This document shows positions 11,319 through 31,271 of a stretch of 64,000 nucleotides of DNA, in pieces. The notes below the pieces were generated by a model, which saw only the letters and a program-made list of their open reading frames with translations, had not been told where the DNA came from and did no database searches. Every line of letters begins with the position of its first letter. The first letter of the stretch is position 1. The translations under genes and the position numbers were made by a program. This stretch comes from Escherichia coli (GTDB lineage: Bacteria > Pseudomonadota > Gammaproteobacteria > Enterobacterales > Enterobacteriaceae): NCBI RefSeq assembly GCF_029227855.1, contig NZ_CP074356.1. One strand, written 5' to 3'.

Positions 11319-11358
11319 TATCAGGTAAAGAAGCGTTGGTCAGTAGTTGTTGCTGTTC

Positions 11359-11873: not shown

Positions 11874-12692
11874 GTGAAACTGACAACACATCATCTACGG
11901 GCGGGGGCCGCATTATTGCTGGCAGGAATTCTGCTGGCAGGTTGCGACCAGAGTGGCAGCGATACAAAACACATTAAAGTTGGCGTTATAAATGGCGCAG
12001 AACAAGATGTCGCGGAAGTCGCTAAAAAGGTAGCAAAAGAGAAATATGGTCTCGATGTTGAACTGGTAGGATTTAGCGGTTCGTTGCTACCGAACGATGC
12101 GACAAATCATGGCGAACTTGATGCGAATGTCTTTCAGCATCGACCCTTTCTCGAACAAGATAATCAGGCGCATGGTTATAAACTGGTAGCGGTGGGAAAT
12201 ACGTTTGTCTTCCCCATGGCGGGTTATTCCAAAAAAATCAAAAGTGTGGCGCAAATAAAAGAAGGCGCGACAGTGGCGATCCCCAACGACCCGACCAACC
12301 TTGGTCGTGCGCTTTTACTGTTGCAAAAAGAGAAGCTAATTACTCTGAAAGAGGGAAAAGGGTTATTACCTACCGCGCTGGATATAACCGATAATCCTCG
12401 TCATTTGCAGATTATGGAACTCGAGGGGGCGCAGCTCCCGCGCGTACTGGATGATCCCAAAGTTGATGTAGCGATTATCAGCACCACTTACATTCAGCAG
12501 ACAGGGCTTTCTCCGGTGCACGACAGCGTATTTATTGAAGATAAGAATTCGCCGTATGTGAATATTTTGGTGGCACGGGAAGATAATAAGAATGCAGAAA
12601 ACGTGAAGGAATTTCTGCAATCTTATCAATCACCCGAAGTCGCTAAAGCGGCAGAAACCATTTTTAACGGTGGCGCGGTGCCTGGCTGGTAA
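11874..12692 (+). CDS. nlpA: Lipoprotein 28 (MetQ-like substrate-binding lipoprotein)
   Basis: 272-aa ORF with lipobox LLAGC and NlpA/MetQ-family body; GTG start. Confidence 0.9.
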   Translation: MKLTTHHLRAGAALLLAGILLAGCDQSGSDTKHIKVGVINGAEQDVAEVAKKVAKEKYGLDVELVGFSGSLLPNDATNHGELDANVFQHRPFLEQDNQAHGYKLVAVGNTFVFPMAGYSKKIKSVAQIKEGATVAIPNDPTNLGRALLLLQKEKLITLKEGKGLLPTALDITDNPRHLQIMELEGAQLPRVLDDPKVDVAIISTTYIQQTGLSPVHDSVFIEDKNSPYVNILVAREDNKNAENVKEFLQSYQSPEVAKAAETIFNGGAVPGW

Positions 12693-12695
12693 TTC

Positions 12696-13619
12696 TCACT
12701 CATGCCGCGCCGGACGATTTATTTTTCTGGCGCGGCGACGGGAATCCATTGAAATCAAAATCACCGATGACAGAATCAGCAGCGTTCCCAGCCAGTCCGG
12801 TAATGTGAACGTGATCCCCAGCAACAGCAAAGAGAGTAGCGCGCTACTTAATGGTTCTGCACAGCTCAAAATGCTGGCTTTTGGACCGCCAATTAATTGT
12901 GCTCCTTTCAGGTACAGACTAAATGTCAGGGACGTACCAATGACCACCAAATAAAAAAACGCCAGAATCAAACTGCCGTTAACGACAAAGTTTGTTCCTT
13001 GTCTGGCATAAAAAGGCAACAGAATCAGACCGCCAATCAGCATACTCCAGCCGACGACTGGTAACGTGCCATAGCGGGCAATTAGCGTTGAGGGATAGGT
13101 GGTATAGAATGCAGCAGCAAATGCCGAGGCAATGCCCCAGAACAACGCGGCAGGAGAGATCGATAATGACGTCGGATTACCGTGTGTCACCAATAAAAAA
13201 GTCCCGACCAGCGATGTCAAAATAGCGCAGAAAACCAGAATGCCCGGGCGCGATTTACGCACCAGTGAGAACCAGGCGACGATAATCGTCGGTGAGAGGA
13301 ATTGCAGCACCGTTGCCGTGGCTGCGTTCGATTTTTCGATGGTTAGCAAAAAAGTGAGCTGTACAGTTAGCGCGCCAACCACGGAAAAAATCAGCAGGCT
13401 AATGGCATCTTTATGATTGTTAATAATAGAAAAGATTTTATCGCCATGAACAAATGACAGCGTCAGTAGAATCAAACCGGCGAATATCAAACGCGTCATA
13501 GTCAAAAACTGCGACGACATCTGGCTTTGCTCCATGATGTATTGCGCGCAGACCCCTGAACTTCCCCACAACACGGCGGCAATCAGAACGTTCAGCATCC
13601 CCTTTCTGGTGGAACCCAT
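12696..13619 (-). CDS. yicL: EamA/DMT-family inner membrane transporter YicL
   Basis: 307-aa 10-TM protein with duplicated EamA-like halves. Confidence 0.87.
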
Positions 13620-13729
13620 TTTTCCCTCTGCATACTGTTTTGTCGTTTATGTATGCAGGCATGATAGCAAAAATGGCGAGGATGGCTCTGTTTGCGCCAC
13701 GCCGATTTTTCTTAGCCCAGACTGGTGAG

Positions 13730-14914
13730 CTAAATATCTTTAATAAACAGCAGGCAAATCATCGCAATACCCAACATCCCTATCGCCAGACAGAACAACG
13801 CATGGTAGCTCCAGATTTCAACCATAATTCCGTCAACAGAGCCGGCGATAATCCAGCCGACGCGTGAAGTATTTGCATATAACGTTGTCGCAGAGCCTAT
13901 TTTTTCAGGCATCAAGTCCTGAAAATAAAGCATGCCGATACCACAGAGAATACCAAGGAAGATGGCATTAAGAATTTGCAATTCCAGCTCAACCGCCGGA
14001 GTCGTCGCCATGAGTACGCTGGCGTAAAAACACATTCCACTCACGATAGCAATGAGCATTAATAGTCGCTTGCCAATACGTTTCATGTAATAGCCTGCGA
14101 TTAACATCATCGGAATTTCCAGACCGGCAGCGATACCAATCATTTCTCCAGCCAGTTTATCGGTTAGATGCAGTTCATCAATAATAAATAGCGGCATATT
14201 TATCATGTAGAGATTATTCGCCGCCCACATCATTGAACAGACCACAAAAAGTAGCCGCGTATCCCGCTTCCTGTGGGTGGAGGGTAAAATTTCTACGGGT
14301 TGGGTAACGACAGGAATATTTCTTTGTATTGATGGCAAAAACAACCAGACTATCAGTCCGCAAACAACAAATGCGATGGCTGCGGTGAGATACATCACTT
14401 TAAAACTAAATCCCATTGCCAGTTCATAAGCGAGCGGTGGCCCGATAACCCAGGCAAGCGAGATCTGAGCACGTAAAAATGTACTGAACATGACCGTCTC
14501 ACGGCCTGTTCTGTCGGCGTGTTCACGGGCGAGGGCGAACATTTGCGGGTTTGCGGTGGAAGCAAAACTACTCAGAAGTACGCCCGTTGAGAGGAGAATG
14601 AAGTAGTTGCGATTCCACGCAAAAAGCGTGCAGGCCAGCACTCCAAATAAGCAACATAGCAGAATCAGTAATTTACGGTCGCCTTGTTTATCGGAGTGCC
14701 TTGCCAGAAATTGACTGACCAGAATTCCCATAATAGCGCTACCGGTGAAGAAAAAACCTACCATTATAGGACGGGCTTTCAGTTCATCTGCGAGGAATAT
14801 ACTTAGGGTAGGAGTCTGAAGAGCGCCCGCAATACCCGTCAGAAAGGCGACAAGTAAAAATGCCGCGGCAGTGAGATCAAGTATTTTTGATGGAGTGGTA
14901 GCCGTTTTTTGCAT
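13730..14914 (-). CDS. setC: Sugar efflux transporter SetC (MFS)
   Basis: 394-aa MFS ORF recognised as SetC/YicK. Confidence 0.88.
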   Translation of the reverse strand: MQKTATTPSKILDLTAAAFLLVAFLTGIAGALQTPTLSIFLADELKARPIMVGFFFTGSAIMGILVSQFLARHSDKQGDRKLLILLCCLFGVLACTLFAWNRNYFILLSTGVLLSSFASTANPQMFALAREHADRTGRETVMFSTFLRAQISLAWVIGPPLAYELAMGFSFKVMYLTAAIAFVVCGLIVWLFLPSIQRNIPVVTQPVEILPSTHRKRDTRLLFVVCSMMWAANNLYMINMPLFIIDELHLTDKLAGEMIGIAAGLEIPMMLIAGYYMKRIGKRLLMLIAIVSGMCFYASVLMATTPAVELELQILNAIFLGILCGIGMLYFQDLMPEKIGSATTLYANTSRVGWIIAGSVDGIMVEIWSYHALFCLAIGMLGIAMICLLFIKDI

Positions 14915-15550
14915 TCTTCTGAATCACCGGGCGAAAAAATATAACTGAGTTACAAATAAGTACCAGTCGAATGAGTATTGTATTAAGAATTTTTGAGTAT
15001 CGCTGATACAACCAGAAAGCAATGCTAGCGCAATATTATAGGGCCAGCAATTGAGATTATTAGTAAAAGCATGTTAAGAATTAATTACCGAATTTATATA
15101 TTAATTATAGTAAGGCAATGAGCTATTTTTGATAGTAAAAATAAAACAAGTTGATTTGATATATTAAATGAACAAATTAATCTTGATGGCAGTCTGATTA
15201 TTGGTGAAGTTTATAGTCAGTTTTTTTCGCCAGCGGTTAAAGAAATAGAATAGTCGTATAAAAAAGGGTGTTCTGGGGCGAGTAAAACAACATCTTCACC
15301 TTAATGGCGATACAGTTGGCTGAGAGTCAGCAGGGGGGCAAATCACCTGCAAATAAACACGGCGCATACTGGCGTGAATATCGCGGATGCGTTCGAGGAC
15401 AGAAGAACCGACAGGCGGATTCTTCAGCCGCTCATCGTCCATCACAAAACCTTAGACCAGGTATTCCTGAAGCCGATTGAATATTGAGCAGTAGAAAATA
15501 TCTGGATTGACAGTATTACAAGGGGTTGGAGAACGTCAGGAGAGGCATTT

Positions 15551-15571
15551 TGGCGGAAGATCACAGGAGTC
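15551..15571 (+). repeat. attL: 21-bp direct repeat of the selC 3' end
   Basis: Exact copy of 27174..27194. Confidence 0.8.
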
Positions 15572-15715
15572 AAAATTGACATATAACAATTTGATTTAAA
15601 TCGTTTATATTTTTCTATTCTAATTCATTTATACACATCCTTATACATATAATATCTATCGATTAATTTTTACACGCATCTTCACGCACGTTAACTCAGG
15701 AAAAAAATTTTTTTT

Positions 15716-16012
15716 TCGGAAGAACTGTTCACACTGTTCACCTTTCTGTTTTCTCCTTTTATTTCAGTTGGATAGGTGGTGAATAATGGGTGAAGGGTGA
15801 ACATTCGATTCTTCACCTCCGGCATTCTGCCGGTGTGACTCATACCGGTGATTAATCCCCCGTGCTGAAATCACACCGGAAGAAAAAAGTTTTTTTTGAT
15901 TTGATTGTTCACACTGTTCACCTTTCATTTTTCTCTTTTAATTTCAGTGTGATAACGGGTGAATATACGGTGAAGGGTGAACAGTGGATTGTTCACCTTC
16001 GGGGAATTCAGG
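15716..16012. repeat. crr-like region: two ~110-bp direct repeats with TGTTCACC/GGTGAACA octamer iterons
   Basis: Block gttcacactgttcacctttc...ggtgaagggtgaaca occurs twice (about 15722 and 15903), immediately downstream of the alpha gene; P4 crr has two 120-bp repeats with alpha-binding type I iterons. Confidence 0.7.
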
Positions 16013-16047
16013 GATAAAAAAAGACCGGCAGATGCCGGTCACGTGGG

Positions 16048-18381
16048 TCAGGTTGTTGCAGGGTCGTCACATTTTGGCAGCCAGTCGCCGTAGCTTTCCT
16101 CTTTCAGCGTCAGGTTGGTCTGTATCCCCTGTTTGGTATGGCGCTTCTCGTAATTCAGTCCGTATTCCTTCAGCATCACCGGCAGCCCCAGCCCGAACAT
16201 TTTCAGACTGAGTACATTCCGGTAGCCGTTTGCCTCCATGTAGGCCAGATAGGCGTGATAGAGGTATTTACGGTAATTGCGCGGGATGATACTGGCGTTC
16301 CCCATATACATGCCGCTGGTCTGCGGCAGGGTTTCCAGATAGCCGATAAAATCAAACGTCGGGTCGGCATCCCGTTTGATGTTCAGCGCCTCGTCTGAGT
16401 TCTGCTGGGACTGAAGCAGTGACCGGGCGAGCATCGGGTCGCTGAACTTCTGCATCAGGTGACGCACGATGACCGCCAGCTCGCGGGTGATTTTGTCCTT
16501 AAGTTGCGGGTCGCGCTCCTGCGGGGCTATCTGTTCCGGGAAGTGAATAATCACCCGCCGGCGTGACACGCCGCCGCTGCGGTCGGTGAAGCGCATCGGG
16601 TTATTGTTCACGGCCAGAATCACCGCCGGGATATGCGTGGAGTACGCATCCCGGTATTTCGGGTCAACGGACACTGCATCGCCGCCGGTGATGGCCTTGA
16701 GTCCGGCTCCGTCGCCGCTCCATTTTTCCTGGTCCGGCAGGCGTATCAGTGAGAAGCCAGTTAACGCGGCACGTTCACGCGGGGATTCCAGCGTCTCAAT
16801 GGTGGCCGACGTGGCGTTATCCTCCCCGGCCAGCAGGGTGGCTATTTCGGCCATGATACTTTTGCCGCTGCCGCCGGGACCGGTCACCTCCAGAAAGAGC
16901 TGCCAGTCGTAGCGGTTTGCCAGCACCATAAACAGTGCGGCCAGAATCACGTCGCGTTTTTCCGCACGGCCACCGGCGGCACGGTCAAGCCAGCGCCAGA
17001 ACGCGGGGGCGTGGGTCTCCAGCGTTTCCCCTTCCACCGGCGGGGTGAAATCCACATCGCACAGGGTGCGCATCCAGTGTGACGGACTGTGCGGGTGGAA
17101 CGTGCCGTTCTGCGTGTCGAGCACGCCGTTACGAAAGCCAATCAGGCGGCGGGAGGGGGCTTCCTGCTGCGGAATAATCAGCTTCAGGGTGTCCACCACG
17201 GAGGCCACCTTCCCGGAGGAGAACGGCGCGCGCAGACGCTGAAACAGCCCGGCCACATCCCGGGCAAAGTCCTGTGGCGGCAGCACCTTCCAGACACCAT
17301 TTTCATAGCGGGACAGAAGCTGGCCGTTGGCATCGACCGCGAGCGCCTCGCCGTAATGCTCATAGATACGCATGGCCTTTTCGCTGGTACTCATGGCGGA
17401 AAACTCCGCTTCGCTCATGGTGTCGAACGGGCTTTCAGCCGGTGGCCGGATGGCATCATAAATGGCCTTACGGGTGGCTTCCCCGCCGTACTGCGTGAAG
17501 GCATCATTCCAGTCACCGAAGACCGGCGGCAGGGCAACAACACCTTCACACGCATCTGCGGCTGCGGCGGCTTTTTTCTGGCCGTCACCACTGAGGTCAC
17601 GGTCAGCGGCAAGGACAATCTGACAGGCGGGGTGCTTCTGCCGGGCAAGGCTGGCCAGAGAAAGGAGGTTCACGGAAGAAAGCGCCACCATCACCGTTTC
17701 ACCGGTCAGGTGATGTACGGTAAGTGCGGTCGCGTATCCCTCCGCTATCCACAGACGTTTTCCGGCCTGATTCTGTCCTTCAAGGGTGTGACAGGTGCCC
17801 CTGACCTGTCCGCCTTTCAGGGTGCGCTTACGGCCGTCAGCACTGATTAACTGAAGGTTAACCAGTTCGCCGCTGTCGTCATACAGTGGCACCACAAGGT
17901 CACCGGCGCGCCAGCTCACGCCACCGGCTCTGTGTGTGCCGGTCAGCATCCGGCATTCCCGGCCGGGAAAGCCCTTGCGGGTCAGGTAGGCGTTACCGGT
18001 TCCGGTACGGGTTTTCGCCATCAGGGTTTGTGCCAGTGCGGCGGCGTTCTTCCGGGCAGCGTCTGTTTCAGCACCGGCGGCGGCCGTCACTGCCGGGTCA
18101 GCCGGGGGCAGGCTGCCGGTCACGGCAGCCACCTTTGCGGCCGCGTCGGACGGGGAAACACCAAACACCTTTTCAACCAGTTTCAGGCCGTCACCGGCAC
18201 CACACTGATTGCAGTACCAGGTGCCGCGCCCCTCCCTGTCATCAAAACGGAAGCGGTCACTCCCGCCACAGACCGGACAGGGCTGATGACGGTTCTTCAG
18301 CACCTGAATCCCCAGCGCCGGGAGAATACGCGGCCAGTGGCCGAGCGCATGGCTGACGGTGGCGGTTACGTTCATTTTCAT
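16048..18381 (-). CDS. P4 alpha-like DNA primase/helicase
   Basis: 777-aa ORF; N-terminal zinc-finger primase motif CPVCGGSDRFRFDD...YCNQCG; Walker A GPGGSGKS in the C-terminal helicase part; same length as P4 alpha. Confidence 0.9.
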   Translation of the reverse strand: MKMNVTATVSHALGHWPRILPALGIQVLKNRHQPCPVCGGSDRFRFDDREGRGTWYCNQCGAGDGLKLVEKVFGVSPSDAAAKVAAVTGSLPPADPAVTAAAGAETDAARKNAAALAQTLMAKTRTGTGNAYLTRKGFPGRECRMLTGTHRAGGVSWRAGDLVVPLYDDSGELVNLQLISADGRKRTLKGGQVRGTCHTLEGQNQAGKRLWIAEGYATALTVHHLTGETVMVALSSVNLLSLASLARQKHPACQIVLAADRDLSGDGQKKAAAAADACEGVVALPPVFGDWNDAFTQYGGEATRKAIYDAIRPPAESPFDTMSEAEFSAMSTSEKAMRIYEHYGEALAVDANGQLLSRYENGVWKVLPPQDFARDVAGLFQRLRAPFSSGKVASVVDTLKLIIPQQEAPSRRLIGFRNGVLDTQNGTFHPHSPSHWMRTLCDVDFTPPVEGETLETHAPAFWRWLDRAAGGRAEKRDVILAALFMVLANRYDWQLFLEVTGPGGSGKSIMAEIATLLAGEDNATSATIETLESPRERAALTGFSLIRLPDQEKWSGDGAGLKAITGGDAVSVDPKYRDAYSTHIPAVILAVNNNPMRFTDRSGGVSRRRVIIHFPEQIAPQERDPQLKDKITRELAVIVRHLMQKFSDPMLARSLLQSQQNSDEALNIKRDADPTFDFIGYLETLPQTSGMYMGNASIIPRNYRKYLYHAYLAYMEANGYRNVLSLKMFGLGLPVMLKEYGLNYEKRHTKQGIQTNLTLKEESYGDWLPKCDDPATT

Positions 18382-18395
18382 GGTGTTGTTCTCCT

Positions 18396-18716
18396 TCAGT
18401 GCAGTACCGGCGCTTTTATGTGACGGGCACAGAGTTCATCCATCACAACCAGCCCGAGAAAGGACAGCGACGGCGCGGCCTTCAGGGGGCCGGATTCCAT
18501 TAAATCTTCCAGCAGGGCACAGGCTATCTGACGCCCTTTTTCCTCACCGTGCTGGCGCAGATAAAAGCCTTCCAGCTCAGCGGCGATGGCCGCCTCCAGT
18601 GATTCAAGGGTGAGATGCGGGTAGCGGTGCTGACGTTCGCACACGGTCAGCCAGGCACAGGCGACAGCGCGACGGTAAAGGGCAGCGCGTAAGACGGGCG
18701 GTAAGGGTGTTTTCAT
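18396..18716 (-). CDS. Hypothetical protein (P4-like left operon, 106 aa)
   Basis: ORF immediately upstream of and co-directional with alpha; no recognised motif. Confidence 0.5.
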
Positions 18717-18851
18717 TTGCTTTCCTCCCTGTGACAGATGACTGCATTCCGTGCCGGTTGCATTAACTGATAAGGCATATCTGCGTCTCCTGAAGACGTG
18801 CGTATCCCTGCGCGAATACGCACATTTAATTTTTCGGGTGTCGTTTTTTAA

Positions 18852-19307
18852 TTACAGATAATTGCGGTAACTGTTATCCGGGGTGATTTCCGGGTCAGGC
18901 TCCGTGCGGGGAATTTCCCGCCATTCCCGCGCCACCTGTGCCGCCCGGCTGACCGGAACAGGGTCCTGCGGGTAAATATCCAGATATTTCTCCCGCCATT
19001 TCTGTAATTCCGGGTCTCCGGCCATTTCTTTCAGTACCGCATGCCGGTTTACGGGGCTGCGTCTGAACAGGTCAGGACGGTCACAGGTAAATTCCCGCAG
19101 AAAACGCCCCAGCGGGATGTCTGTGGTGCGCCCGTCAGCGAGGATACGCACAAGGATACTGAATTTACGGCGGTACGGGTTCCAGACAATGTCCGGGCAG
19201 CGGTACGGCATTTCCCACGGAATACCGTCTTCCAGAATGCCGACCACGGCCACATCGGGAAAACCGGCAGAACGGTAAATCTCACCGGGCTGGGGAAAAT
19301 CAAACAT
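18852..19307 (-). CDS. Hypothetical protein (151 aa; same length as P4 orf151)
   Basis: Co-directional ORF in the left operon; protein-like composition. Confidence 0.55.
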   Translation of the reverse strand: MFDFPQPGEIYRSAGFPDVAVVGILEDGIPWEMPYRCPDIVWNPYRRKFSILVRILADGRTTDIPLGRFLREFTCDRPDLFRRSPVNRHAVLKEMAGDPELQKWREKYLDIYPQDPVPVSRAAQVAREWREIPRTEPDPEITPDNSYRNYL

Positions 19308-19872
19308 GCGTCCTGTCTCCCCGGTCTTTCTGCTGGGCGAGAAAATCGCGGCACAGGCCTTTGGCTTTCAGCTCATTCAGCACAAAATCAATATCTTCAT
19401 TCAGGTAACTGAAAATATGCGGAATGTAGAGCTGATGCAGGCCGGAGAGTTCACGGTGAATCAAATCACCCCCAACAAACTGGGATACGGCGCTGGCGCG
19501 GTTGAGCTTATGGTAAGCCTCAATGCTGAGGTGTTCACGGGCGTCATGACGTGCTGAGACGGTCTGAGGGGCTTTTTTATTACGCACGGGACACCTCCAC
19601 CACCGGCAGACGGGCAGCAAGGGAGAGCACATAGTCACGGACAAGGGAACGGCGGGCACTGCGTTCATCACCGGCCACGGTGCGAAGCATACAGATACGG
19701 GGATGACGGTCTGCGCGACGGACAGCCGCAAACACAAAGACAAATTCAGGGTGTGAGGGGGTAAGGGTTGTAGCCATGATGGCAGCCTCCTGTGAATAGC
19801 AAATAACGCTATCGCCGGAGTTCTCACGCTCGATGGCGATAGCCCAGACGGGGGTGAGAATACCGGCTTCAC
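19300..19872 (-). CDS. Hypothetical protein, start uncertain
   Basis: C-terminal ~85 aa look protein-like; the N-terminal part is P/S/L/R-rich and overlaps another frame; putative GTG start. Confidence 0.3.
19580..19777 (-). CDS. Hypothetical small protein (65 aa; C-terminal part of the 214-aa ORF)
   Basis: Internal ATG ([12 protein letters not shown]...) gives a compact ORF ending at the stop at 19580; the upstream part of the 214-aa ORF overlaps vis and is probably not coding. Confidence 0.25.
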
Positions 19873-20175
19873 AGGATACCGGCCAGCCCGGAGGCTGCCC
19901 CGCCTGAGCTACCATTGACTCTGCGGCATAATGAGCGGACGCGGGCAGGATGCACGGAATGCCATCTGCACGACTGACCACACACCACACCATAATCTGG
20001 CGCTCTGTGGCATTGATTGCGACACAAAAAAAGACGCGTGGCGCGTCATATGTCGCCTGTGAATTGCTCGGGTTCTCACGCCCGGCTGCCGATTTTGCGG
20101 CAGCGGAAAAACTATATCCGCAAATGCCGGAAAAAGGCAAGCCAGAAAAAGGGAGTTTTTGCAGAGCGGGCATCA

Positions 20176-20442
20176 TCATGCGTCGTACCCCCGTTTGCGT
20201 CCGGCAATGCGTCCGGCCATCCATGCGGTGACTTCAGAGTGCAGCCAGGCCACATTTTTACCGCCAAGACTCACCTGCGGCGGAAATTCCCCCTTACGGA
20301 TGAGTTCATAGATGGTCGAGCGTGACAGGCCGCACAGGTGCATCACTTCCGGCAGACGTAAAAAACGCTCCTGCGTGATGTCCGGCAGCGGCATCAGTGG
20401 CGTCACTGGGGCGGGAGACGGGGAAGAAAAAACAGATTGCAT
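20176..20442 (-). CDS. AlpA/Vis-family phage transcriptional regulator (88 aa)
   Basis: AlpA-type HTH signature FLRLPEV...[15 protein letters not shown]; same length as P4 Vis (orf88). Confidence 0.78.
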
Positions 20443-20545
20443 CGGGCTACCTCGTTAATGTCCATACAGCACCGGATAAGTCCGTCCGGCTTCGGGTAGC
20501 GCTTTATTTTGTGAATATTTTCGGCAGACGCAACAGGGGGGGATT

Positions 20546-20563
20546 TGTTCCGGCAGTCTTACA
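20546..20563. promoter_or_regulatory. TGT-N12-ACA site (Ogr/Delta-type activator box), candidate leftward late promoter
   Basis: TGTtccggcagtcttACA ~110 bp upstream of the vis start; P2/P4 late promoters carry TGT-N12-ACA centred near -55. Confidence 0.4.
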
Positions 20564-20719
20564 ATGGCTGTGTATTTTTTGTACATCAGCGCCAGATAGC
20601 TTTAAAACGCTCTGGAAGGAGCTGGAAAAAATTATAGTGAAATACAAATTGTTTTTTCTTATTTATTTCAGTGAATTAATAAAAATAAAAAGTAATGAAC
20701 AGCACAAAAAGCCCATTAA

Positions 20720-20830
20720 CGGGTGAACAGTGGTGAACAGACGGTGAACAGTCATTACTGCGATTGTTCACCCTTTAACTTACTGTATTACTTATCTTTT
20801 TTCTTATGGTGAACAGAGGTGAACAGTAAA
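20720..20830. repeat. ori-like cluster of GGTGAACAG iterons
   Basis: Five direct copies and one inverted copy of GGTGAACA(G) within ~110 bp, ~4.8 kb from the crr-like repeats, as in P4. Confidence 0.65.
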
Positions 20831-20904
20831 ATATAAAAAAACAAACAGTAAGCCGGTTTTTCCTGCGACCTTTTCCTGGCTTGCCGGTCTGAGGATGAGT
20901 CTCC

Positions 20905-20922
20905 TGTGTCAGGGCTGGCACA
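20905..20922. promoter_or_regulatory. TGT-N12-ACA site, candidate Psid late promoter activator box
   Basis: TGTgtcagggctggcACA centred ~80 bp upstream of the sid ATG. Confidence 0.45.
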
Positions 20923-20994
20923 TCTGCAATGCGTCGTGTTGTTGTCCGGTGTACGTCACAATTTTCTTAACCTGAAGTGACGAGGAGCCGGAAA

Positions 20995-21729
20995 ATGTCT
21001 GACAACACCATCCCTGAATATCTGCAACCCGCGCTGGCACAACTGGAAAAGGCCAGAGCCGCCCATCTTGAGAACGCCCGCCTGATGGATGAGACCGTCA
21101 CGGCCATTGAACGGGCAGAGCAGGAAAAAAATGCGCTGGCGCAGGCCGACGGAAACGACGCTGACGACTGGCGCACGGCCTTTCGTGCAGCCGGTGGTGT
21201 CCTGAGCGACGAGCTGAAACAGCGCCACATTGAGCGCGTGGCACGCCGGGAGCTGGTACAGGAATATGACAATCTGGCCGTGGTGCTGAATTTTGAACGT
21301 GAACGCCTGAAAGGGGCGTGTGACAGCACGGCCACCGCCTACCGGAAGGCACATCATCACCTGCTGAGTCTGTATGCAGAGCATGAGCTGGAACACGCCC
21401 TGAATGAAACCTGTGAGGCGCTTGTCCGGGCAATGCATCTGAGCATTCTGGTACAGGAAAATCCGCTCGCCAACACCACCGGCCATCAGGGCTACGTCGC
21501 ACCGGAAAAGGCTGTCATGCAGCAGGTGAAATCATCGCTGGAACAGAAAATAAAACAGATGCAAATCAGCCTCACCGGCGAGCCGGTTCTCCGGCTGACC
21601 GGACTGTCAGCGGCAACACTCCCGCACATGAATTATGAGGTGGCAGGCACACCGGCACAGCGCAAGGTGTGGCAGGACAAAATAGACCAGCAGGAAGCAG
21701 AGCTTAAGGCCAGAGGGCTGCTGTCATGA
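20995..21729 (+). CDS. sid: P4 Sid-like capsid size determination (external scaffold) protein
   Basis: 244 aa from MSDNTIPEY; coiled-coil-rich; first gene of the sid-delta-psu arrangement. Confidence 0.78.
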   Translation: MSDNTIPEYLQPALAQLEKARAAHLENARLMDETVTAIERAEQEKNALAQADGNDADDWRTAFRAAGGVLSDELKQRHIERVARRELVQEYDNLAVVLNFERERLKGACDSTATAYRKAHHHLLSLYAEHELEHALNETCEALVRAMHLSILVQENPLANTTGHQGYVAPEKAVMQQVKSSLEQKIKQMQISLTGEPVLRLTGLSAATLPHMNYEVAGTPAQRKVWQDKIDQQEAELKARGLLS

Positions 21730-22226
21730 TTTACTGCCCGTCGTGTGGACATGTTGCTCACACCCGTCGCGCACATTTCATGGACGATGGCACCAAGATA
21801 ATGATTGCACAGTGCCGGAATATTTATTGCTCTGCGACATTTGAAGCGAGTGAAAGCTTTTTCTCTGACTGTAAAGATTCAGGAATGGAATACATTTCAG
21901 GCAAACAGAGATACCGCGATTCACTGACGTCGGCCTCCGGCAGTATGAAACGCCCGAAAAGAATGCTTGTTACCGGATATTGTTGTCGGAGATGTAAAGG
22001 CCTTGCACTGTCAAGAACATCGCGGCGTCTGTCTCAGGAAGTCACCGAGCGTTTTTATGTGTGCACGGATTCGGGCTGTGGTCTGGTGTTTAAAACGCTT
22101 CAGACCATCAACCGCTTCATTGTCCGCCCGGTCACACCGGACGAACTGGCAGAACGCCTGCATGAAAAACAGGAACTGCCGCCAGTACGGTTAAAAACAC
22201 AATCATATTCGCTGCGTCTGGAATGA
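21726..22226 (+). CDS. delta: P4 Delta-like late-gene activator (tandem Ogr-type zinc fingers)
   Basis: 166 aa; two Ogr-like Cys motifs (CPSCGH...CRNIYC and CCRRCKG...CTDSGC); start overlaps sid stop. Confidence 0.88.
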   Translation: MIYCPSCGHVAHTRRAHFMDDGTKIMIAQCRNIYCSATFEASESFFSDCKDSGMEYISGKQRYRDSLTSASGSMKRPKRMLVTGYCCRRCKGLALSRTSRRLSQEVTERFYVCTDSGCGLVFKTLQTINRFIVRPVTPDELAERLHEKQELPPVRLKTQSYSLRLE

Positions 22227-22299
22227 GGGCTGCCGGTTAACCCCGGCCGTCGCCGCACACCGTATTTTTATTCTTCAGCATGATGAGAAAGAGATAACG

Positions 22300-22872
22300 A
22301 TGGAAAGCACAGCCTTACAGCAGGCCTTTGACACCTGTCAGAATAACAAAGCAGCATGGCTGCAACGCAAAAATGAGCTGGCAGCGGCCGAACAGGAATA
22401 CCTGCGGCTTCTGTCAGGAGAAGGCAGAAACGTCAGTCGCCTGGACGAATTACGCAATATTATCGAAGTCAGAAAATGGCAGGTGAATCAGGCCGCCGGT
22501 CGTTATATTCGTTCGCATGAAGCCGTTCAGCACATCAGCATCCGCGACCGGCTGAATGATTTTATGCAGCAGCACGGCACAGTACTGGCGGCCGCACTGG
22601 CACCGGAGTTGATGGGCTACAGTGAACTGACGGACATTGCCCGAAACTGTGCCATACAGCGTGCCACAGATGCCCTGCGTGAAGCCCTTCTGTCCTGGCT
22701 TGCGAAGGGGGAAAAAATTAATTATTCCGCACAGGATAGCGACATTTTAACGACCATCGGATTCAGGCCTGACGCGGCTTCGGTGGATGACAGCCGTGAA
22801 AAATTCACCCCTGCGCAGAACATGATTTTTTCGCGTAAAAGTGCGCAACTGGCATCACATCAGTCTGTGTAA
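22300..22872 (+). CDS. psu: P4 Psu-like polarity suppression / capsid decoration protein
   Basis: 190-aa ORF following delta; same length and position as P4 Psu. Confidence 0.78.
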   Translation: MESTALQQAFDTCQNNKAAWLQRKNELAAAEQEYLRLLSGEGRNVSRLDELRNIIEVRKWQVNQAAGRYIRSHEAVQHISIRDRLNDFMQQHGTVLAAALAPELMGYSELTDIARNCAIQRATDALREALLSWLAKGEKINYSAQDSDILTTIGFRPDAASVDDSREKFTPAQNMIFSRKSAQLASHQSV

Positions 22873-23036
22873 AACTCCCCGAAAATCCGTCCGATTTTAC
22901 TGAAAAAAGCCATGCATCGATAAGGTGCATGGCTTTGCATGCGTTTCCCTGCCTCATTTTCTGCAAACCGCGCCATTCCCGGCGCGGTCTGAGCGTGTCT
23001 GTGCAACTGCATTAAAACCGCCCTGCAAAGCGGGCG

Positions 23037-23055
23037 GGCGAGGCGGGGAAAGCAC
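23037..23055 (+). other. P2/P4-type cos site
   Basis: Exact 19-mer GGCGAGGCGGGGAAAGCAC, the P2/P4 cohesive-end sequence as I recall it, between psu and the cargo operon. Confidence 0.78.
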
Positions 23056-23076
23056 TGCGCGCACGAGAGTAAAACA

Positions 23077-23739
23077 TTACTCAATTGAAAAATGTAACAT
23101 TCCTCTCTCTCTCGGTGTAATGGTGTTGGGATGAACTAACCGTTCCATTTCAAAACCAAAATCATGATAAGCAGTATTATAAAAAGAGCTTAAAATAAAT
23201 TTCACAAACGTTACCGGACATAATGGTGACGACAATGGTATCCGGCAATTTTTAAACTGACCTAGGGTTAGGTGTGCTGCTGGATGAATAACATCATTAG
23301 CGTCATCAGGGGCATAATCCACTCGTATCGGAACGGGTAAAATTGATTTTTGGACAATGTCAGCATAAAAGTTGCTTTCGTCTAAATATAACTCAGGGTC
23401 ATTCTGGAATGATTCGTAATTAGGCGCGGGGAAATAACATAGTCTTTCTTTTACAAGTTTCATTCGACGATCAAACTGAAATAAAAGATGGAGTAACCCA
23501 CCATCTAATAATTTGATATTATATTGCCTTTTTTCGTCCAAGAAGTTATAGATATCAACATACTCAATATTTCTTAATGCAATTGAAGTATCAGCGAATC
23601 CGCTATAGCTGACATAATAATATTCTTTATCCCGTGTTATTACAGGATAGTTTTGTGCGTCACTGATACCCACTGATATCAGATGAGATGTGATTTTTCT
23701 AATTGCTGCGCAAATGCTACTTGAGTTCATCTCATTCAC
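23077..23739 (-). CDS. Hypothetical protein, second gene of the satellite cargo operon (candidate defense partner/effector)
   Basis: 220-aa ORF; start overlaps or lies 1 nt after the stop of the upstream helicase-like gene; AT-rich; no recognisable catalytic motif or TM segment. Confidence 0.7.
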   Translation of the reverse strand: MNEMNSSSICAAIRKITSHLISVGISDAQNYPVITRDKEYYYVSYSGFADTSIALRNIEYVDIYNFLDEKRQYNIKLLDGGLLHLLFQFDRRMKLVKERLCYFPAPNYESFQNDPELYLDESNFYADIVQKSILPVPIRVDYAPDDANDVIHPAAHLTLGQFKNCRIPLSSPLCPVTFVKFILSSFYNTAYHDFGFEMERLVHPNTITPRERGMLHFSIE

Positions 23740-25828
23740 CCTTCAGTTGCTTAATTAAAGCAAGGCGTAATTCTTCTGGTATATCTTCAACTCTAACTTG
23801 TCCATCCAATAGAACCATGAGATTATGGGCGTTCAATTTAGCTTGGTGTACTCTTTTTCTCTCTTGAGAAGTCATATCCCTGTTCACCAGTCGCATTTTT
23901 TTACGCTCTGCTTCTGTTGGGTATGTAAATTCCAGTTTAAATCCTCTTTGTTTCACCTCATTGTATTCGTTAATCAGGCCATCAAAGGAAGAACCCACAC
24001 CACATACACGAAGCCATGCTTTAGTTCTTGTCATTGCAGTAAAAAGGATATTTCTACGCTTTGCCAGTTCATAATCCACGTTGCAATAATGAGCATCCAT
24101 GATGTATACCATAGCTGCTTCGTTTCCCTTTGCTCTGAATATGGATGTAAATGTTACACTATTGTCTGAGAAAAACTCATCAGGAGAGCTTGTAATTCCA
24201 GCTATAGATGTATTAATTCCGTTTTGGAATAAAAGGTCACGCAGATAACCTACTTCATTTCTCATACGTATTGTATCTGGGTGAATTACAACAATGTCGC
24301 TAGGTAATATCTCTTCCTCATGAATATTTTTAAATATTTCCTGCGCAATCCAATTAGATTGAGAATGCTTGTCTTCAAATTTAACAAACTGGATCATCTC
24401 ATCAATTGAGTTATGTGCACTCAATAGGGATGGGCTAGATTTCGTTGTCCTTGATAATATAACCTCCTTTCCCTCAACTAATTCACCATCTATTTTTTCA
24501 TAACCAATCTCTGTCCATAATCCTTCAAAATCAAACATCTGAATTATTGGTTTATGATAAATACCAAACCCTAAAGCATGAGCCGTGGTTAAGATTGGGC
24601 CTGGATTTCGATAACAAATGTCTAAAGTTATATCTTGTTCTTCACTGGTGAAACTAACAATTGGTTTTCCATGCTCGTCTACTCCCCAAATTTGTTCAGG
24701 AGAAGGCATGGATGAATCCCCAAGATTTTGTAATTCATCATAAGCGTAAACTAATCGTTTCTTTTCCCCTAGCAAAGAATAACATATGCGGAGAAACTCA
24801 ATTGAAAAATCTTGAGCCTCATCAATAAGGATGAAATCATATAATTTCTTATCTTCTTTTTTATTATCGAGGAAGTTCTTACAGGCAGCCTGAAAAGGTG
24901 TTTCATTAAATTCTGCAAGACGACGTGCGCCGTTATAATCGTAATAAGGTATATTATGTGCCACACATGCGTTGTAATATAAACCTTCTGTTTTAGAGCC
25001 GCCCCAGGCATGAATAATGTCTACGTTATCCCAATCAATTCCATTATCATCTGCGAATGCTGAGACTAAATGTTTTAGTTGCTCTTTGAGAGAGCGACTA
25101 TTGAAAGTAACTGCTATTTTCCAGTGAGGATTTTGTGAGTGTATATGTGCAATTTTTCGAGCGAGAACAATAGTCTTACCTGAGCCAGCAAGCCCACGAA
25201 TCCTTTGGACATTATCAATATTGACCAAGACGGCAGTCGTTTGACTAGAATCAAGAGTGGCAAGTGAATTCTCCAATTTTTTTAGTACGCTACCCTTTGA
25301 GTCAATCTGTCTGACATAGCTTCTTTTTCTCTTGGGCTTCAATTTTGAAAGTGATTGAACATGGGATAGTAAAGTTTCAAGAAGGGAACCATCATCCCAG
25401 GTAATGTCATTGAGAATAGATAATATTTCATCAACATTGGAACTAATGCTTAAACCACTGTCACAATCAAAATCATCAATATTTATACAGTTTGGTGCGA
25501 AAACAATACTGTTCACAGGTACGTTTAATATTCTGTTTTTAGTCAGTGCTTTTACTTCAGAAAGTTTTGCGACGAATTTCATGTGCATTTCGTCAATGAT
25601 ATCAATATCATCTTGGGTTAACTCTCTTTCCTCATTGAAATGGAAAATGACAACACCATGCTTTGATGAGCAAATTAGACCATCAAGAGTAACATTGTTT
25701 TCGCTTAGAAAAATAACAGGAAAACCGCGATAATAATATCCAGTTATATCATTTATCTTTCTTATTGAATTTTCTAGAATATCAGAAACAGTATGATTCT
25801 GAGGTTTCATTCCCAATATTTCAATCAT
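23732..25828 (-). CDS. SF1 (UvrD-like) helicase-family ATPase with ~200-aa N-terminal domain of unknown function; candidate defense protein
   Basis: 698 aa; Walker A GLAGSGKT (res ~212-219), motif II LIDEAQDF (res ~334-341), C-terminal FRAKGNEAAMVYI and FTAMTRTKAWL resembling UvrD-like helicase C-terminal motifs; GGAG Shine-Dalgarno 8 nt before the ATG; start overlaps the int stop. Confidence 0.85.
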   Translation of the reverse strand: MIEILGMKPQNHTVSDILENSIRKINDITGYYYRGFPVIFLSENNVTLDGLICSSKHGVVIFHFNEERELTQDDIDIIDEMHMKFVAKLSEVKALTKNRILNVPVNSIVFAPNCINIDDFDCDSGLSISSNVDEILSILNDITWDDGSLLETLLSHVQSLSKLKPKRKRSYVRQIDSKGSVLKKLENSLATLDSSQTTAVLVNIDNVQRIRGLAGSGKTIVLARKIAHIHSQNPHWKIAVTFNSRSLKEQLKHLVSAFADDNGIDWDNVDIIHAWGGSKTEGLYYNACVAHNIPYYDYNGARRLAEFNETPFQAACKNFLDNKKEDKKLYDFILIDEAQDFSIEFLRICYSLLGEKKRLVYAYDELQNLGDSSMPSPEQIWGVDEHGKPIVSFTSEEQDITLDICYRNPGPILTTAHALGFGIYHKPIIQMFDFEGLWTEIGYEKIDGELVEGKEVILSRTTKSSPSLLSAHNSIDEMIQFVKFEDKHSQSNWIAQEIFKNIHEEEILPSDIVVIHPDTIRMRNEVGYLRDLLFQNGINTSIAGITSSPDEFFSDNSVTFTSIFRAKGNEAAMVYIMDAHYCNVDYELAKRRNILFTAMTRTKAWLRVCGVGSSFDGLINEYNEVKQRGFKLEFTYPTEAERKKMRLVNRDMTSQERKRVHQAKLNAHNLMVLLDGQVRVEDIPEELRLALIKQLKGE

Positions 25829-27011
25829 TTTGAACTCCGGTAGATAAATTCATCAAAAAATCCGAGTATTTTTGCATCATATATTTTCTTTTATCAAGAT
25901 ACAAAGCATGATTATATGTGCCTCGGATAGTATTCTTATCAACATGTGCGAGCTGAATCTCAATCCATGCGCTCTCAAATCCCATTTCATGAAGAATTGT
26001 CGATAGTGTATGCCTAAAACCATGACCAGTAGTTCTTCCCTTATAACCTAATGATTCAATAACTTGGTTTACACTTTCTTTGCTTATCGGTTTTCTACGA
26101 TCATTTCTGCCAATAAAAACATAGGGATAGTCCGATGTTATCGGTTGTAGTTGTTTAAACAGTTCAATTACCTGAGATGATAAAGGTACTATATGTGGCC
26201 GACGCATTTTCATCCGTTCAGCAGGTATTTCCCAGATACCTTTTATCAAATCAATTTCACTCCAAGTTGCAAAACGCATTTCCTGCGTCCTGACTCCTGT
26301 CATCATTAGGATCTTGGTTGCGTTTTTGGTAATAATACTTCCAGTATATGACTCTAGATCTCTAACAAAATGAGGTAGCTCTTCCGCGGATAAAAACGGA
26401 TGATGCCTTTGCTTGGGAATAGCCAAAGCGATTGCTAAATCAGGCGCCGGATTGTATTCAGCACGGCCAGTGATGATCGCGTAGCGAAACACTTCTCCAC
26501 ATCGTTGGCGAACTTTTCTGGTTTTCTCCAACGCTCCACGTTTTTCGATGCGCTTAAGTACTTCAAGCAGTTCTAATGGCTTAATTTCAGATATTGGGCG
26601 TTTACCAATGAAAGGAAAAACGTCCTGTTCGAATGTTTTAATAATTTCCTCCCGATAAGCGATAGTCCAGCGATCTGCTTTTGCTGCATGCCATTCTCTG
26701 CTAACTGACTCAAAAGAATTTTCAGTTGATAATTTTTGAGCAAGTTTCTGAGCCTTCCGTTCTTCTACTGGGTCTATGCCGTTTGCTACCTGCTTACGTG
26801 CAGTATCACGTTTCTCTCGTGCTTCTGCGAGGCTAACAAGTTCGTAACTACCAAATGACATTAGCCGTGCTTTACCGGCGAAACGAAAGCGGAAGCGCCA
26901 GCCCTTTGAACCGTCTGGCTTGATGAGTAGTGACAAACCGTGCCCATCATTCATTGTATATGGTTTGTCTTGTGGTTTTGCGCGTTTGATTTGTATATCG
27001 GTTAGAGCCAT
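25821..27011 (-). CDS. int: P4-type tyrosine integrase
   Basis: 396 aa; catalytic HGFRHT...(R)...Y motifs in the C-terminus; N-terminal P4-integrase-like region; lies next to selC. Confidence 0.93.
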   Translation of the reverse strand: MALTDIQIKRAKPQDKPYTMNDGHGLSLLIKPDGSKGWRFRFRFAGKARLMSFGSYELVSLAEAREKRDTARKQVANGIDPVEERKAQKLAQKLSTENSFESVSREWHAAKADRWTIAYREEIIKTFEQDVFPFIGKRPISEIKPLELLEVLKRIEKRGALEKTRKVRQRCGEVFRYAIITGRAEYNPAPDLAIALAIPKQRHHPFLSAEELPHFVRDLESYTGSIITKNATKILMMTGVRTQEMRFATWSEIDLIKGIWEIPAERMKMRRPHIVPLSSQVIELFKQLQPITSDYPYVFIGRNDRRKPISKESVNQVIESLGYKGRTTGHGFRHTLSTILHEMGFESAWIEIQLAHVDKNTIRGTYNHALYLDKRKYMMQKYSDFLMNLSTGVQND

Positions 27012-27173
27012 GTGTATAACTGAAAACTGCGTATGAAGATTCTATACACATTACTATACATATTTTTCGCGGATTCAGGGAGATGATCTCGGACTATTAC
27101 GGACAAGATGATTATTTATGATATTGAATATAAAGGATTTTATGGAGTATCTCGGAACTGGCTGGATGAAGTT

Positions 27174-27268
27174 TGGCGGAAGATCACAGGAGTCGAACCT
27201 GCCCGGGACCGCTGGCGGCCCCAACTGGATTTGAAGTCCAGCCGCCTCACCGGAGACGACGATCTTCC
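27174..27268 (-). tRNA. selC: tRNA-Sec (selenocysteine tRNA, UCA anticodon)
   Basis: 95-nt match to the selC sequence as I recall it, on the minus strand, including long variable arm and CCA end. Confidence 0.93.
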
Positions 27269-27560
27269 GCGCCTCGATTGCTACATGGAGGCGGGGCGCA
27301 TTATAGCTACTTCCTTGAGTTTCTACATCCCCCAGATCAGTTTTTTCCGCCTAATACACGCAGCGTATTATCACGAAAGCATTATAGTTCATATAAAACC
27401 CATATTTTACAATGATATATGAGCGGAATTAACGCTACCACGATCACATAAAACAAGAATCATAAATTAATAACCAGATATCGGAATATTCGCTCTCACA
27501 GGGATGGTTTACAAAATGCGTTATCGGTCTCAGCACCCCTATAGCATCAAGGAAAAGCAG

Positions 27561-28943
27561 ATGAAGAGTGAAGTGTTGTCCGTTAAAGAGAAAATTGGTT
27601 ATGGCATGGGAGACGCCGCCAGCCACATTATTTTCGATAACGTAATGTTATATATGATGTTCTTTTATACCGATATTTTTGGCATTCCTGCCGGATTTGT
27701 CGGAACCATGTTTTTGGTCGCTCGTGCACTGGATGCGATTTCCGATCCTTGCATGGGGTTGTTGGCCGATCGAACGCGCTCTCGCTGGGGTAAATTTCGT
27801 CCGTGGGTACTGTTTGGCGCACTGCCATTCGGGATCGTCTGTGTACTGGCCTATAGCACGCCAGATCTCAGTATGAACGGCAAAATGATCTATGCAGCAA
27901 TTACTTACACCCTACTTACCTTACTTTATACCGTCGTCAATATCCCTTACTGCGCATTGGGTGGTGTAATCACCAATGACCCGACTCAGCGTATCTCGCT
28001 GCAATCCTGGCGTTTTGTGCTGGCGACCGCGGGAGGCATGCTTTCTACTGTTCTGATGATGCCACTGGTTAATTTAATTGGCGGTGATAATAAACCACTC
28101 GGTTTCCAGGGCGGTATCGCGGTCCTTTCCGTGGTGGCATTCATGATGCTGGCATTTTGTTTCTTCACCACTAAAGAACGCGTTGAAGCACCACCTACAA
28201 CAACGTCTATGCGGGAAGATTTACGTGATATCTGGCAAAACGACCAGTGGCGGATTGTCGGTTTACTAACCATTTTCAATATCCTGGCGGTGTGCGTACG
28301 CGGTGGGGCGATGATGTATTACGTCACATGGATTTTGGGCACGCCGGAAGTGTTTGTCGCTTTTCTCACCACTTATTGCGTGGGTAACCTGATTGGTTCC
28401 GCACTGGCAAAACCTCTGACCGACTGGAAATGTAAAGTCACTATCTTCTGGTGGACGAACGCCCTGCTGGCAGTGATTAGCCTCGCGATGTTCTTTGTTC
28501 CCATGCAGGCCAGCATCACTATGTTTGTCTTCATCTTCGTGATTGGTGTGTTGCATCAACTGGTGACACCTATCCAGTGGGTAATGATGTCCGATACCGT
28601 CGACTACGGCGAGTGGTGCAATGGTAAACGCCTGACCGGGATCAGTTTTGCTGGCACGCTGTTTGTGCTCAAACTGGGGTTGGCCTTCGGCGGCGCTCTT
28701 ATCGGCTGGATGCTGGCTTATGGCGGATATGATGCGGCAGAAAAAGCGCAGAACAGCGCCACGATTAGCATCATTATTGCGCTATTCACGATTGTTCCGG
28801 CGATCTGTTATTTGCTGAGCGCGATTATCGCTAAACGCTACTACTCACTCACGACGCACAATCTGAAAACCGTTATGGAACAGCTGGCTCAGGGTAAACG
28901 CCGTTGCCAGCAACAATTCACCTCTCAAGAAGTGCAGAACTAA
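27561..28943 (+). CDS. yicJ: GPH-family glycoside:cation symporter YicJ
   Basis: 460 aa from MKSEVL; MelB-like transporter; ORF track start 27504 is over-extended. Confidence 0.87.
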   Translation: MKSEVLSVKEKIGYGMGDAASHIIFDNVMLYMMFFYTDIFGIPAGFVGTMFLVARALDAISDPCMGLLADRTRSRWGKFRPWVLFGALPFGIVCVLAYSTPDLSMNGKMIYAAITYTLLTLLYTVVNIPYCALGGVITNDPTQRISLQSWRFVLATAGGMLSTVLMMPLVNLIGGDNKPLGFQGGIAVLSVVAFMMLAFCFFTTKERVEAPPTTTSMREDLRDIWQNDQWRIVGLLTIFNILAVCVRGGAMMYYVTWILGTPEVFVAFLTTYCVGNLIGSALAKPLTDWKCKVTIFWWTNALLAVISLAMFFVPMQASITMFVFIFVIGVLHQLVTPIQWVMMSDTVDYGEWCNGKRLTGISFAGTLFVLKLGLAFGGALIGWMLAYGGYDAAEKAQNSATISIIIALFTIVPAICYLLSAIIAKRYYSLTTHNLKTVMEQLAQGKRRCQQQFTSQEVQN

Positions 28944-28952
28944 GGAACGGCA

Positions 28953-31271
28953 ATGAAAATTAGCGATGGAAACTGGTTGATTCAACCTGGCCTCAATTTG
29001 ATTCACCCGCTTCAGGTGTTCGAGGTTGAACAGCAGGATAATGAAATGGTGGTCTATGCTGCCCCCCGTGATGTGCGTGAACGTACCTGGCAGCTTGATA
29101 CTCCTTTATTTACGTTGCGCTTTTTCTCCCCACAGGAAGGTATTGTCGGTGTGCGGATTGAGCATTTTCAGGGGGCGCTGAATAACGGTCCTCATTATCC
29201 GCTCAATATTTTGCAGGACGTGAAGGTCACAATCGAAAACACAGAACGTTATGCTGAGTTTAAAAGTGGCAACTTAAGCGCGCGTGTCAGCAAAGGTGAG
29301 TTCTGGTCACTGGATTTTCTGCGCAACGGCGAACGTATTACCGGTAGTCAGGTGAAAAATAATGGCTACGTGCAGGACACGAATAATCAACGCAATTATA
29401 TGTTTGAGCGGCTTGATCTTGGCGTTGGCGAAACAGTTTACGGTCTGGGAGAGCGCTTTACTGCCCTGGTGCGCAATGGCCAGACGGTAGAGACCTGGAA
29501 CCGGGACGGCGGCACAAGTACTGAACAGGCGTATAAAAATATCCCGTTCTACATGACTAACCGTGGTTATGGGGTACTGGTCAATCATCCCCAGTGTGTC
29601 TCTTTTGAAGTGGGATCGGAGAAAGTCTCCAAAGTGCAGTTCAGCGTTGAGAGTGAATATCTCGAATACTTTGTTATCGACGGCCCGACGCCGAAAGCGG
29701 TACTTGATCGTTATACCCGCTTTACTGGTCGTCCGGCGCTGCCGCCCGCGTGGTCCTTCGGCCTGTGGCTAACCACTTCATTTACCACCAACTACGACGA
29801 AGCGACGGTAAACAGCTTTATCGATGGTATGGCGGAACGCAATCTGCCGCTGCATGTTTTCCACTTTGACTGTTTCTGGATGAAAGCCTTCCAGTGGTGC
29901 GATTTTGAGTGGGACCCGCTGACTTTCCCTGACCCGGAAGGGATGATCCGCCGCCTGAAAGCGAAAGGACTGAAAATCTGCGTCTGGATTAACCCCTATA
30001 TCGGTCAAAAATCCCCCGTCTTTAAAGAGTTACAAGAGAAAGGCTATTTACTCAAACGCCCGGACGGTTCGCTATGGCAGTGGGATAAATGGCAGCCAGG
30101 TCTGGCGATTTATGACTTTACCAATCCGGATGCCTGCAAATGGTACGCCGACAAACTGAAAGGTCTGGTCGCGATGGGCGTTGATTGCTTTAAGACCGAC
30201 TTTGGCGAACGTATCCCAACTGATGTTCAGTGGTTTGACGGTTCCGATCCGCAGAAAATGCATAACCATTATGCGTACATCTACAACGAACTGGTGTGGA
30301 ACGTGCTCAAGGACACCGTTGGTGAGGAAGAAGCTGTCTTGTTTGCCCGCTCGGCCTCCGTCGGTGCGCAGAAATTCCCGGTACACTGGGGTGGCGATTG
30401 TTACGCTAACTACGAATCAATGGCGGAAAGCCTGCGCGGTGGTTTGTCTATTGGCCTTTCAGGTTTTGGCTTCTGGAGCCACGATATCGGCGGCTTTGAA
30501 AATACCGCTCCGGCGCACGTTTACAAACGCTGGTGCGCGTTTGGTTTGCTCTCCAGCCATAGCCGTTTACACGGTAGCAAATCTTATCGTGTGCCGTGGG
30601 CCTACGATGATGAGTCCTGTGATGTGGTGCGCTTCTTCACGCAACTGAAATGCCGCATGATGCCGTATCTGTATCGTGAAGCTGCGCGTGCGAACGCGCG
30701 GGGTACGCCGATGATGCGGGCCATGATGATGGAGTTCCCGGACGATCCGGCTTGTGATTACCTTGACCGTCAATACATGTTAGGCGACAACGTGATGGTT
30801 GCGCCGGTGTTCACTGAAGCGGGCGATGTGCAGTTCTACCTGCCGGAAGGTCGCTGGACACACCTGTGGCACAACGATGAGCTCGACGGTAGTCGCTGGC
30901 ATAAACAGCAGCACAGCTTCCTGAGTCTGCCCATTTATGTGCGTGATAACACCCTACTGGCGCTGGGCAACAACGATCAACGTCCCGATTACGTGTGGCA
31001 CGAAGGCACGGCATTCCACCTCTTTAATCTGCAAGACGGGCATGAAGCCGTCTGTGAAGTGCCCGCTACTGACGGATCGGTGATCTTTACTTTAAAAGCA
31101 GCACGTACTGGCAACACGATTACTGTGACTGGTGCGGGCGAGGCGAAGAACTGGACGCTGTGCCTGCGCAATGTTGTGAAAGTAAATGGTCTGCAAGACG
31201 GTTCGCAGGCTGAAAGTGAGCAGGGGCTGGTGGTGAAGCCTCAAGGGAATGCGCTGACAATTACGTTGTAA
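28953..31271 (+). CDS. yicI: Alpha-xylosidase (GH31)
   Basis: 772 aa; GH31 catalytic region (WINPYI...KTDFGE). Confidence 0.92.

Follow-up and report, generated by a model that had tools for sequence, protein, structure and literature searches.

A probable ori1/PLL/Psid control region between vis and sid in a P4-type satellite prophage beside selC of Escherichia coli

The non-coding spacer between the divergent genes vis and sid in a 64-kb stretch of Escherichia coli DNA (the whole of which is here called the window) very probably forms the ori1/PLL/Psid control region in a satellite prophage of the P4 type that is inserted beside selC. Direct observation covers the P4 identity of the element, its cis elements, each of them present and conserved, and its intact trans-acting genes. 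The arrangement, with an origin of replication between two late promoters, is that of the textbook P4 map and is already known. One real departure from P4 was found, namely the replacement of three P2 Cox boxes upstream of PLL by an unrelated cassette, which is a common allele among E. coli genomes.

Background

In P4, the late promoters PLL and Psid flank the origin spacer and are activated by Delta or by the Ogr protein of the helper (Dehò, Christie, Calendar and colleagues). The start sites of the P4 late promoters have been mapped, and the definition of the minimal ori1 includes, besides the iterons, an AT-rich stretch of some 35 bp lying among them. A TGT-N12-ACA consensus and dependence on Ogr have been described (PMC3931495), and Delta, a homologue of Ogr, activates the late genes of both P2 and P4 (PMC8628076). 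The alpha protein combines a primase, an SF3 helicase and a C-terminal DNA-binding domain (PMC2777425).

Materials and methods

The window was aligned with the GenBank record of P4 (X51522), and the promoter geometry was compared with the record of P2. For the collection of relatives one genome per species was scanned for the iteron triplet, which yielded 20 loci from Citrobacter, Enterobacter, Cedecea, Pantoea, Erwinia, Buttiauxella, Raoultella, Phytobacter, Tenebrionibacter and, unexpectedly, Haemophilus. The conservation profile was calculated from 18 aligned loci. The extent of the PLL leader was set on the assumption that +1 lies some 55 nt from the box centre.

Results

Identity and setting

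From crr to the cos end, window positions 15703-23037 correspond to P4 4291-11624 with 98.2% identity, and the spacer region is 95.4% identical to P4 X51522 8788-9888. In the P4 record this spacer is labelled "origin of DNA replication", the gene on its left is ORF88 (now vis) and the gene on its right is sid. The encoded proteins are close to those of P4, with 771 of 776 residues identical in alpha (99%), 86 of 88 in Vis against ORF88 (98%) and 162 of 166 in Delta (98%). Because P4 identity, P4 annotation, near-P4 trans-acting proteins and the immunity RNA (Table 1) agree, the element was assigned as a P4-type satellite prophage and the spacer as its ori1 region.

Table 1. Coordinates of the features discussed, numbered along the window
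Feature	Position	Strand	Remarks
EamA-type transporter (TIGR00950 family)	12696-13619		flanking host gene
SetB-family sugar efflux transporter	13730-14914		flanking host gene
crr	15703-16000		second replication site in cis; a 120-bp repeat, present twice, with the same octamers as ori1; downstream of alpha
alpha	16048-18381	-	primase-helicase initiator, 777 aa; TIGR01613 (P4-family primase)
Immunity RNA C4 (RF01695), isrK (RF01394), C4 target a1b1 (RF03163)	19832-20117	-	Rfam; just downstream of vis
vis (P4 ORF88)	20176-20442	-	88 aa; AlpA/excisionase-type helix-turn-helix regulator; first gene of the PLL transcript
vis-sid spacer, non-coding	20443-20994		552 bp; between vis ATG (20442, -) and sid ATG (20995, +)
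Predicted PLL leader (vis 5′-UTR)	20443-20499	-	contains hairpin-forming block GTCCGTCCGGCTTCGGGTAGC
PLL -10-like hexamer CAAAAT, inferred	20506-20511	-	34 nt from PLL box, as at Psid
PLL activator box TGT-N12-ACA	20546-20563		TGTTCCGGCAGTCTTACA
Variable cassette	20584-20631		48 bp; replaces P4 'ori type 2 repeats'; candidate helper-response array upstream of PLL
AT-rich tract left of iterons	20632-20721		GC 12-25%
ori1 core, six type 1 iterons	20722-20826	.	layout same as P4 annotation
AT-rich spacer between iterons 4 and 5	20773-20807		35 bp; CTTTAACTTACTGTATTACTTATCTTTTTTCTTAT; GC ~30%
Psid activator box TGT-N12-ACA	20905-20922		TGTGTCAGGGCTGGCACA; P4 box identical
Psid -10-like hexamer CACAAT	20957-20962	+	CAGAAT in most relatives; 34 nt past box; conserved
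sid	20995-21729	+	244 aa; heads late operon sid-delta-psu; length and position as P4 sid
delta	21726-22226	+	late-gene activator; two Ogr-like zinc-finger halves; two stretches match NF007241
Integrase	25821-27011		396 aa; NF007246; adjoins tRNA-Sec
tRNA-Sec (selC)	27174-27268	-	

Since its integrase adjoins tRNA-Sec, the element was placed at selC; the integrase, the integration site and the cargo genes all differ from those of P4. Another reading frame, at 13730-14914, was considered as the integrase and rejected, as it encodes the SetB-family transporter of the flanking host DNA. Beyond the cos end, at 23077-25828 (-), the P4 genes gop, beta and cII are replaced by genes for a DUF2290 protein (PADLOC PDLC02999, 2e-77) and a helicase (PDLC03002, 2e-265). 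This pair, which occupies the cargo hotspot of P4, is a candidate for an anti-phage function. Two phage records of 174 kb, MG065686 and MG065691 ('Campylobacter phage A18a/A11a'), match 39% of window positions 11000-30000 with 99.7% identity, and this looks like E. coli sequence inside both records.

The spacer was found in 1006 of 5426 complete E. coli genomes, in every case on the chromosome. The P4-type family is carried by about a fifth of complete E. coli genomes. Among the 30 records listed of these 1006 genomes, none has a RefSeq feature over the spacer.

Origin core

The octamer GGTGAACA occurs 14 times in the window against 1.95 expected (about 7-fold), a count reached in none of 100 shuffles. 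Its clusters are the two expected sites, the vis-sid spacer and crr, the latter with five copies at 15735-15997. In the spacer, six octamers lie inside 104 bp, five of them direct (20722, 20732, 20743, 20808 and 20818, +) and one inverted (20765, -; GGTGAACAA), and a G stands directly 3′ of all five direct copies. An earlier note on this DNA had described five direct octamers and an inverted one between a vis-like gene and sid, and such a set was recovered at 20722-20825. The TGTTCACC/GGTGAACA octamers are laid out as three direct, one inverted and two direct copies with near-helical spacing, at offsets of 0, 10, 21, 43 (inverted), 86 and 96, which are those of P4. The P4 record labels the same six octamers 'ori type 1 repeat' and puts them inside its 'origin of DNA replication', and this annotation, in a region nearly identical to P4, bears out the suggestion that the block is ori-like.

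In the conservation profile the iterons are invariant. Between iterons 4 and 5, the 35-bp spacer shows strong conservation of its sequence from genus to genus, beyond mere composition, and probably serves as the unwinding element. A terminator scan picked out an inverted repeat of 11 bp, with a loop of 8 nt, made up of iteron 3 and the inverted iteron 4 (20743-20772); a hairpin could be extruded here on origin unwinding. Between the origin and the Psid box, a further block, TTTTTCCTGCGACCTTTTCCTGGC (20857-20885), is kept across genera, with 60-90% of the 18 loci agreeing per column.

Iteron arrays were also seen at two Haemophilus loci, L009 (843-871) and L012 (9170-9275), with six to seven exact GGTGAACA octamers, all direct, in AT-rich DNA. 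Neither a TGT-N12-ACA box nor a sid-like neighbour is present at these two loci, and the L012 array adjoins genes for an HK97-type major head protein, a protease and a portal protein. The iteron word is also used by a different, capsid-encoding Pasteurellaceae element.

Late promoters

One TGT-N12-ACA box had been proposed on each side of the iterons, and both boxes are indeed there (Table 1). They occupy the positions of the Delta/Ogr-dependent late promoters of P4, PLL on the vis side and Psid on the sid side. At both of them the distance from the box to a CAnAAT hexamer is exactly 34 nt. In the P2 record the annotated activator site lies 55 nt (pO), 56 nt (pP), 55.5 nt (pV) and 57-59 nt (pF) from the start, and by analogy a gap of 34 nt would put +1 about 55 nt from the box centre, with predicted starts near 20969 (+) and 20499 (-). 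A sigma-70 consensus scan of positions 20300-21100 returned 0 promoter-like sites, as would be expected of promoters that depend on an activator. The view of the two sides as Ogr/Delta-type late promoters, which the earlier note had put forward, thereby gains support from the P4 positions, the equal gaps, the missing sigma-70 site and the near-P4 Delta.

The Psid side of the window is 99% identical to P4. On the other side, the predicted PLL leader is highly conserved over the 18 enterobacterial loci, the PLL core is kept as well, and the block around the PLL -10, TTATTTTGTGAATATTTTC, is conserved in the same 18 loci. The origin and both promoters do share one spacer, as the earlier note had it, but its word 'interleaved' goes too far, because the origin core and the outward promoters lie side by side and have no bases in common; the iteron core is separated by about 158 bp from the box of PLL and by about 78 bp from that of Psid.

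Cassette upstream of PLL

Nearly all divergence from P4 in the spacer is concentrated in 20584-20703, where identity drops to 50% over 20584-20631 and 85% over 20632-20703 (72 bp), compared with 96-99% in the flanks. The P2 Cox protein is reported to bind upstream of PLL and to activate it, and the consensus of its boxes is TTAAA(G/C)NC(A/C) (PMC3936717). By a consensus scan, the 'ori type 2 repeats' of P4 (X51522 9176-9205) are three such boxes with 10-bp spacing, at 9180, 9190 and 9200, that match 9, 9 and 8 of 9 positions. The same scan of the window cassette found no phased Cox boxes and a single 8/9 box on the opposite strand; several direct-repeat Cox boxes at 10-11 bp spacing upstream of PLL, as in P4, are absent from the window. 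Because the Cox boxes are replaced by an unrelated cassette, activation by P2 Cox has probably been lost in the window element or retargeted to another helper.

The P4-type allele of the cassette is carried by 439 of 5426 E. coli genomes, the window-type allele by 372 and a third type (08_3418-type) by 276, and together the three alleles account for 1161 of 1212 places, or about 96% of the E. coli copies. Outside E. coli, other genera have different motifs at this position, such as TGGCAAnC, in 3-6 phased copies (loci L004-L028). The Cox protein of WPhi reportedly does not activate P4 and recognises a different repeat (PMC5009727). These data suggest that the cassette may be tuned to the Cox-type protein of the helper. 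A wider proposal, to be taken as tentative and on balance doubtful, is that 20584-20631 is a swappable helper-recognition module whose versions would each suit a different P2-like helper, through the Cox/Apl-type protein of that helper. If this were true, the cassette would decide which incoming phage can wake the satellite. Moreover, binding of Cox at the cassette might help to open ori1, since Cox filaments have been proposed to extend from PLL towards the origin. In a search of phage genomes with the window-type array (blastn, E <= 10), only chance matches inside coding genes were obtained. A likeness to the direct repeat of WPhi Pe-Pc consists of one 11/15 match (0.018 expected per 81 bp); as a post hoc comparison with a single comparator it was judged too weak and set aside.

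The periodic 10-bp array upstream of PLL might instead be read by the satellite's own Vis, with no part for a helper Cox-type protein. Vis regulates PLL. It is of the excisionase type, and regulators of this type recognise direct repeats with a spacing of one helical turn and also control promoters that do not lie at att (PMC7498355). Across the three E. coli alleles, however, Vis remains 97-99% identical and does not vary with the allele, while the array falls to 50% identity, and residues 31-60 of Vis, which hold the predicted helix-turn-helix, are identical throughout the alleles and kept even in the 70%-identical Vis of GF3-3. The close fit of the P4 array to the P2 Cox-box consensus and the reported binding of Cox upstream of PLL also speak against this reading. 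As Vis is constant while the array alleles differ, Vis is disfavoured and an unlikely reader of the array.

Discussion

The replaced cassette raises the question of decay, since the element could be a remnant of P4 in which the origin and promoters are present but inactive, and many P4-like islands are defective (PMC8628076). Against this stand the reading frames of alpha, vis, sid, delta, psu and the integrase, every one of which is full length, and the intact crr, ori and C4/CI immunity RNA with its targets; with the C4 RNA and its targets found intact by Rfam, the immunity circuit of the prophage appears to be intact as well. The cassette itself is a common allele, found in 372 genomes, and no private lesion. 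A decayed remnant is accordingly considered quite improbable.

For the two activator boxes, a chance origin of one or both, without any role for an activator, had to be weighed, in particular for the PLL-side box, which is the weaker of the two. By itself the motif TGT-N12-ACA shows no enrichment in the window, where 13 matches stand against 14.3 expected. A third match at 20943-20960, absent from the earlier note, is evidently due to chance and was treated so; it falls partly on the region from -35 to -10 of Psid, and relatives do not keep its ACA (GF3-3 and others have AGA). None of the annotated activator sites of P2 contains an exact TGT-N12-ACA; they are imperfect versions of it, so that the motif is a loose rule. 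Apart from P4 and the window, two Buttiauxella loci were the sole ones with an exact PLL box at the matching offset; the other relatives have imperfect versions. As the count is at chance level, the significance of the boxes rests on position and conservation. Both boxes stand in their P4 positions, and the P4 equivalent of the PLL box, TGTTCAGGCTGTCTTACA, lies in the same place and differs by two substitutions within N12, with TGT and ACA kept. The same gap to CAnAAT recurs on both sides. Sixteen of the 20 distant loci have an exact Psid box with a variable N12 at a fixed distance (+178 to +183) from the first iteron (consensus TGTGCCA-N5-TGCCACA, followed by a CAGAAT -10), and the box is for this reason taken as a conserved element and no chance match. 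We therefore give very little weight to a chance origin and retain both boxes as predicted activator sites of PLL and Psid.

With the same octamer at both sites, the vis-sid iterons might instead be the auxiliary cis region crr of P4 and not the origin proper. This reading has practically no probability left and was rejected. In the P4 record, the feature 'crr (cis required region for replication)' spans 4291-4590, on the downstream side of alpha, and aligns with window positions 15703-16000; the counterpart of the vis-sid block in P4 is the annotated rep_origin, with the six type 1 repeats.

From the work on P4 and P2 we infer how binding, start sites and activity would be organised in the window element. 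The gene for alpha lies 2.3 kb to the left of the spacer; its product would bind the six helically phased GGTGAACA iterons and also the related iterons of crr, about 4.7 kb from the spacer, and would then open the adjoining AT-rich DNA and prime replication. PLL and Psid, which would have no usable -35, would lie one on each side of the origin and be directed outward, PLL serving vis and the left operon and Psid serving sid-delta-psu. Either promoter would be turned on when a zinc-finger activator, the Delta of the satellite or the Ogr of the helper, binds the TGT-N12-ACA dyad, whose centre would lie about 55 nt upstream of the start.

The finding on the origin and promoters adds nothing beyond the P4 literature, and its practical use lies in the annotation of the spacer. 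The variable array upstream of PLL could matter more than the origin finding, as a modest lead and not as a result. If the array matches the Cox protein of the helper, it would offer a marker of satellite-helper specificity that can be read from the sequence.

Comparison with known systems

The Ogr-dependent late promoters pP/pO, pV and pF of P2 have in common with the predicted promoters of the window an upstream, partly symmetric dyad, the lack of a -35 and a weak -10; the dyad centre lies some 55 nt from the start in P2 and would do so in the window. Like the window pair, P2 pP and pO are divergent, and the left half-site TGTGTCAG is common to Psid and P2 pO. The two pairs differ in that pP and pO use one common activator site, with 111 bp between their starts, whereas each promoter of the window has a site of its own; some 359 bp, counted start to start, lie between the two sites, and a replication origin is situated there.

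With the helically phased repeats, the cis-encoded initiator and the adjoining AT-rich DNA, the origin resembles those of P1, F, pSC101 and lambda. It is unlike them in its initiator, a fused primase, SF3 helicase and winged-helix protein, and in being bipartite, with the distant second iteron site crr required. The closest counterpart is ori1 of P4 (X51522 ~9030-9583), with which the window element shares both flanking genes, the six iterons in spacing and orientation, the AT-rich spacer, the two boxes and crr.
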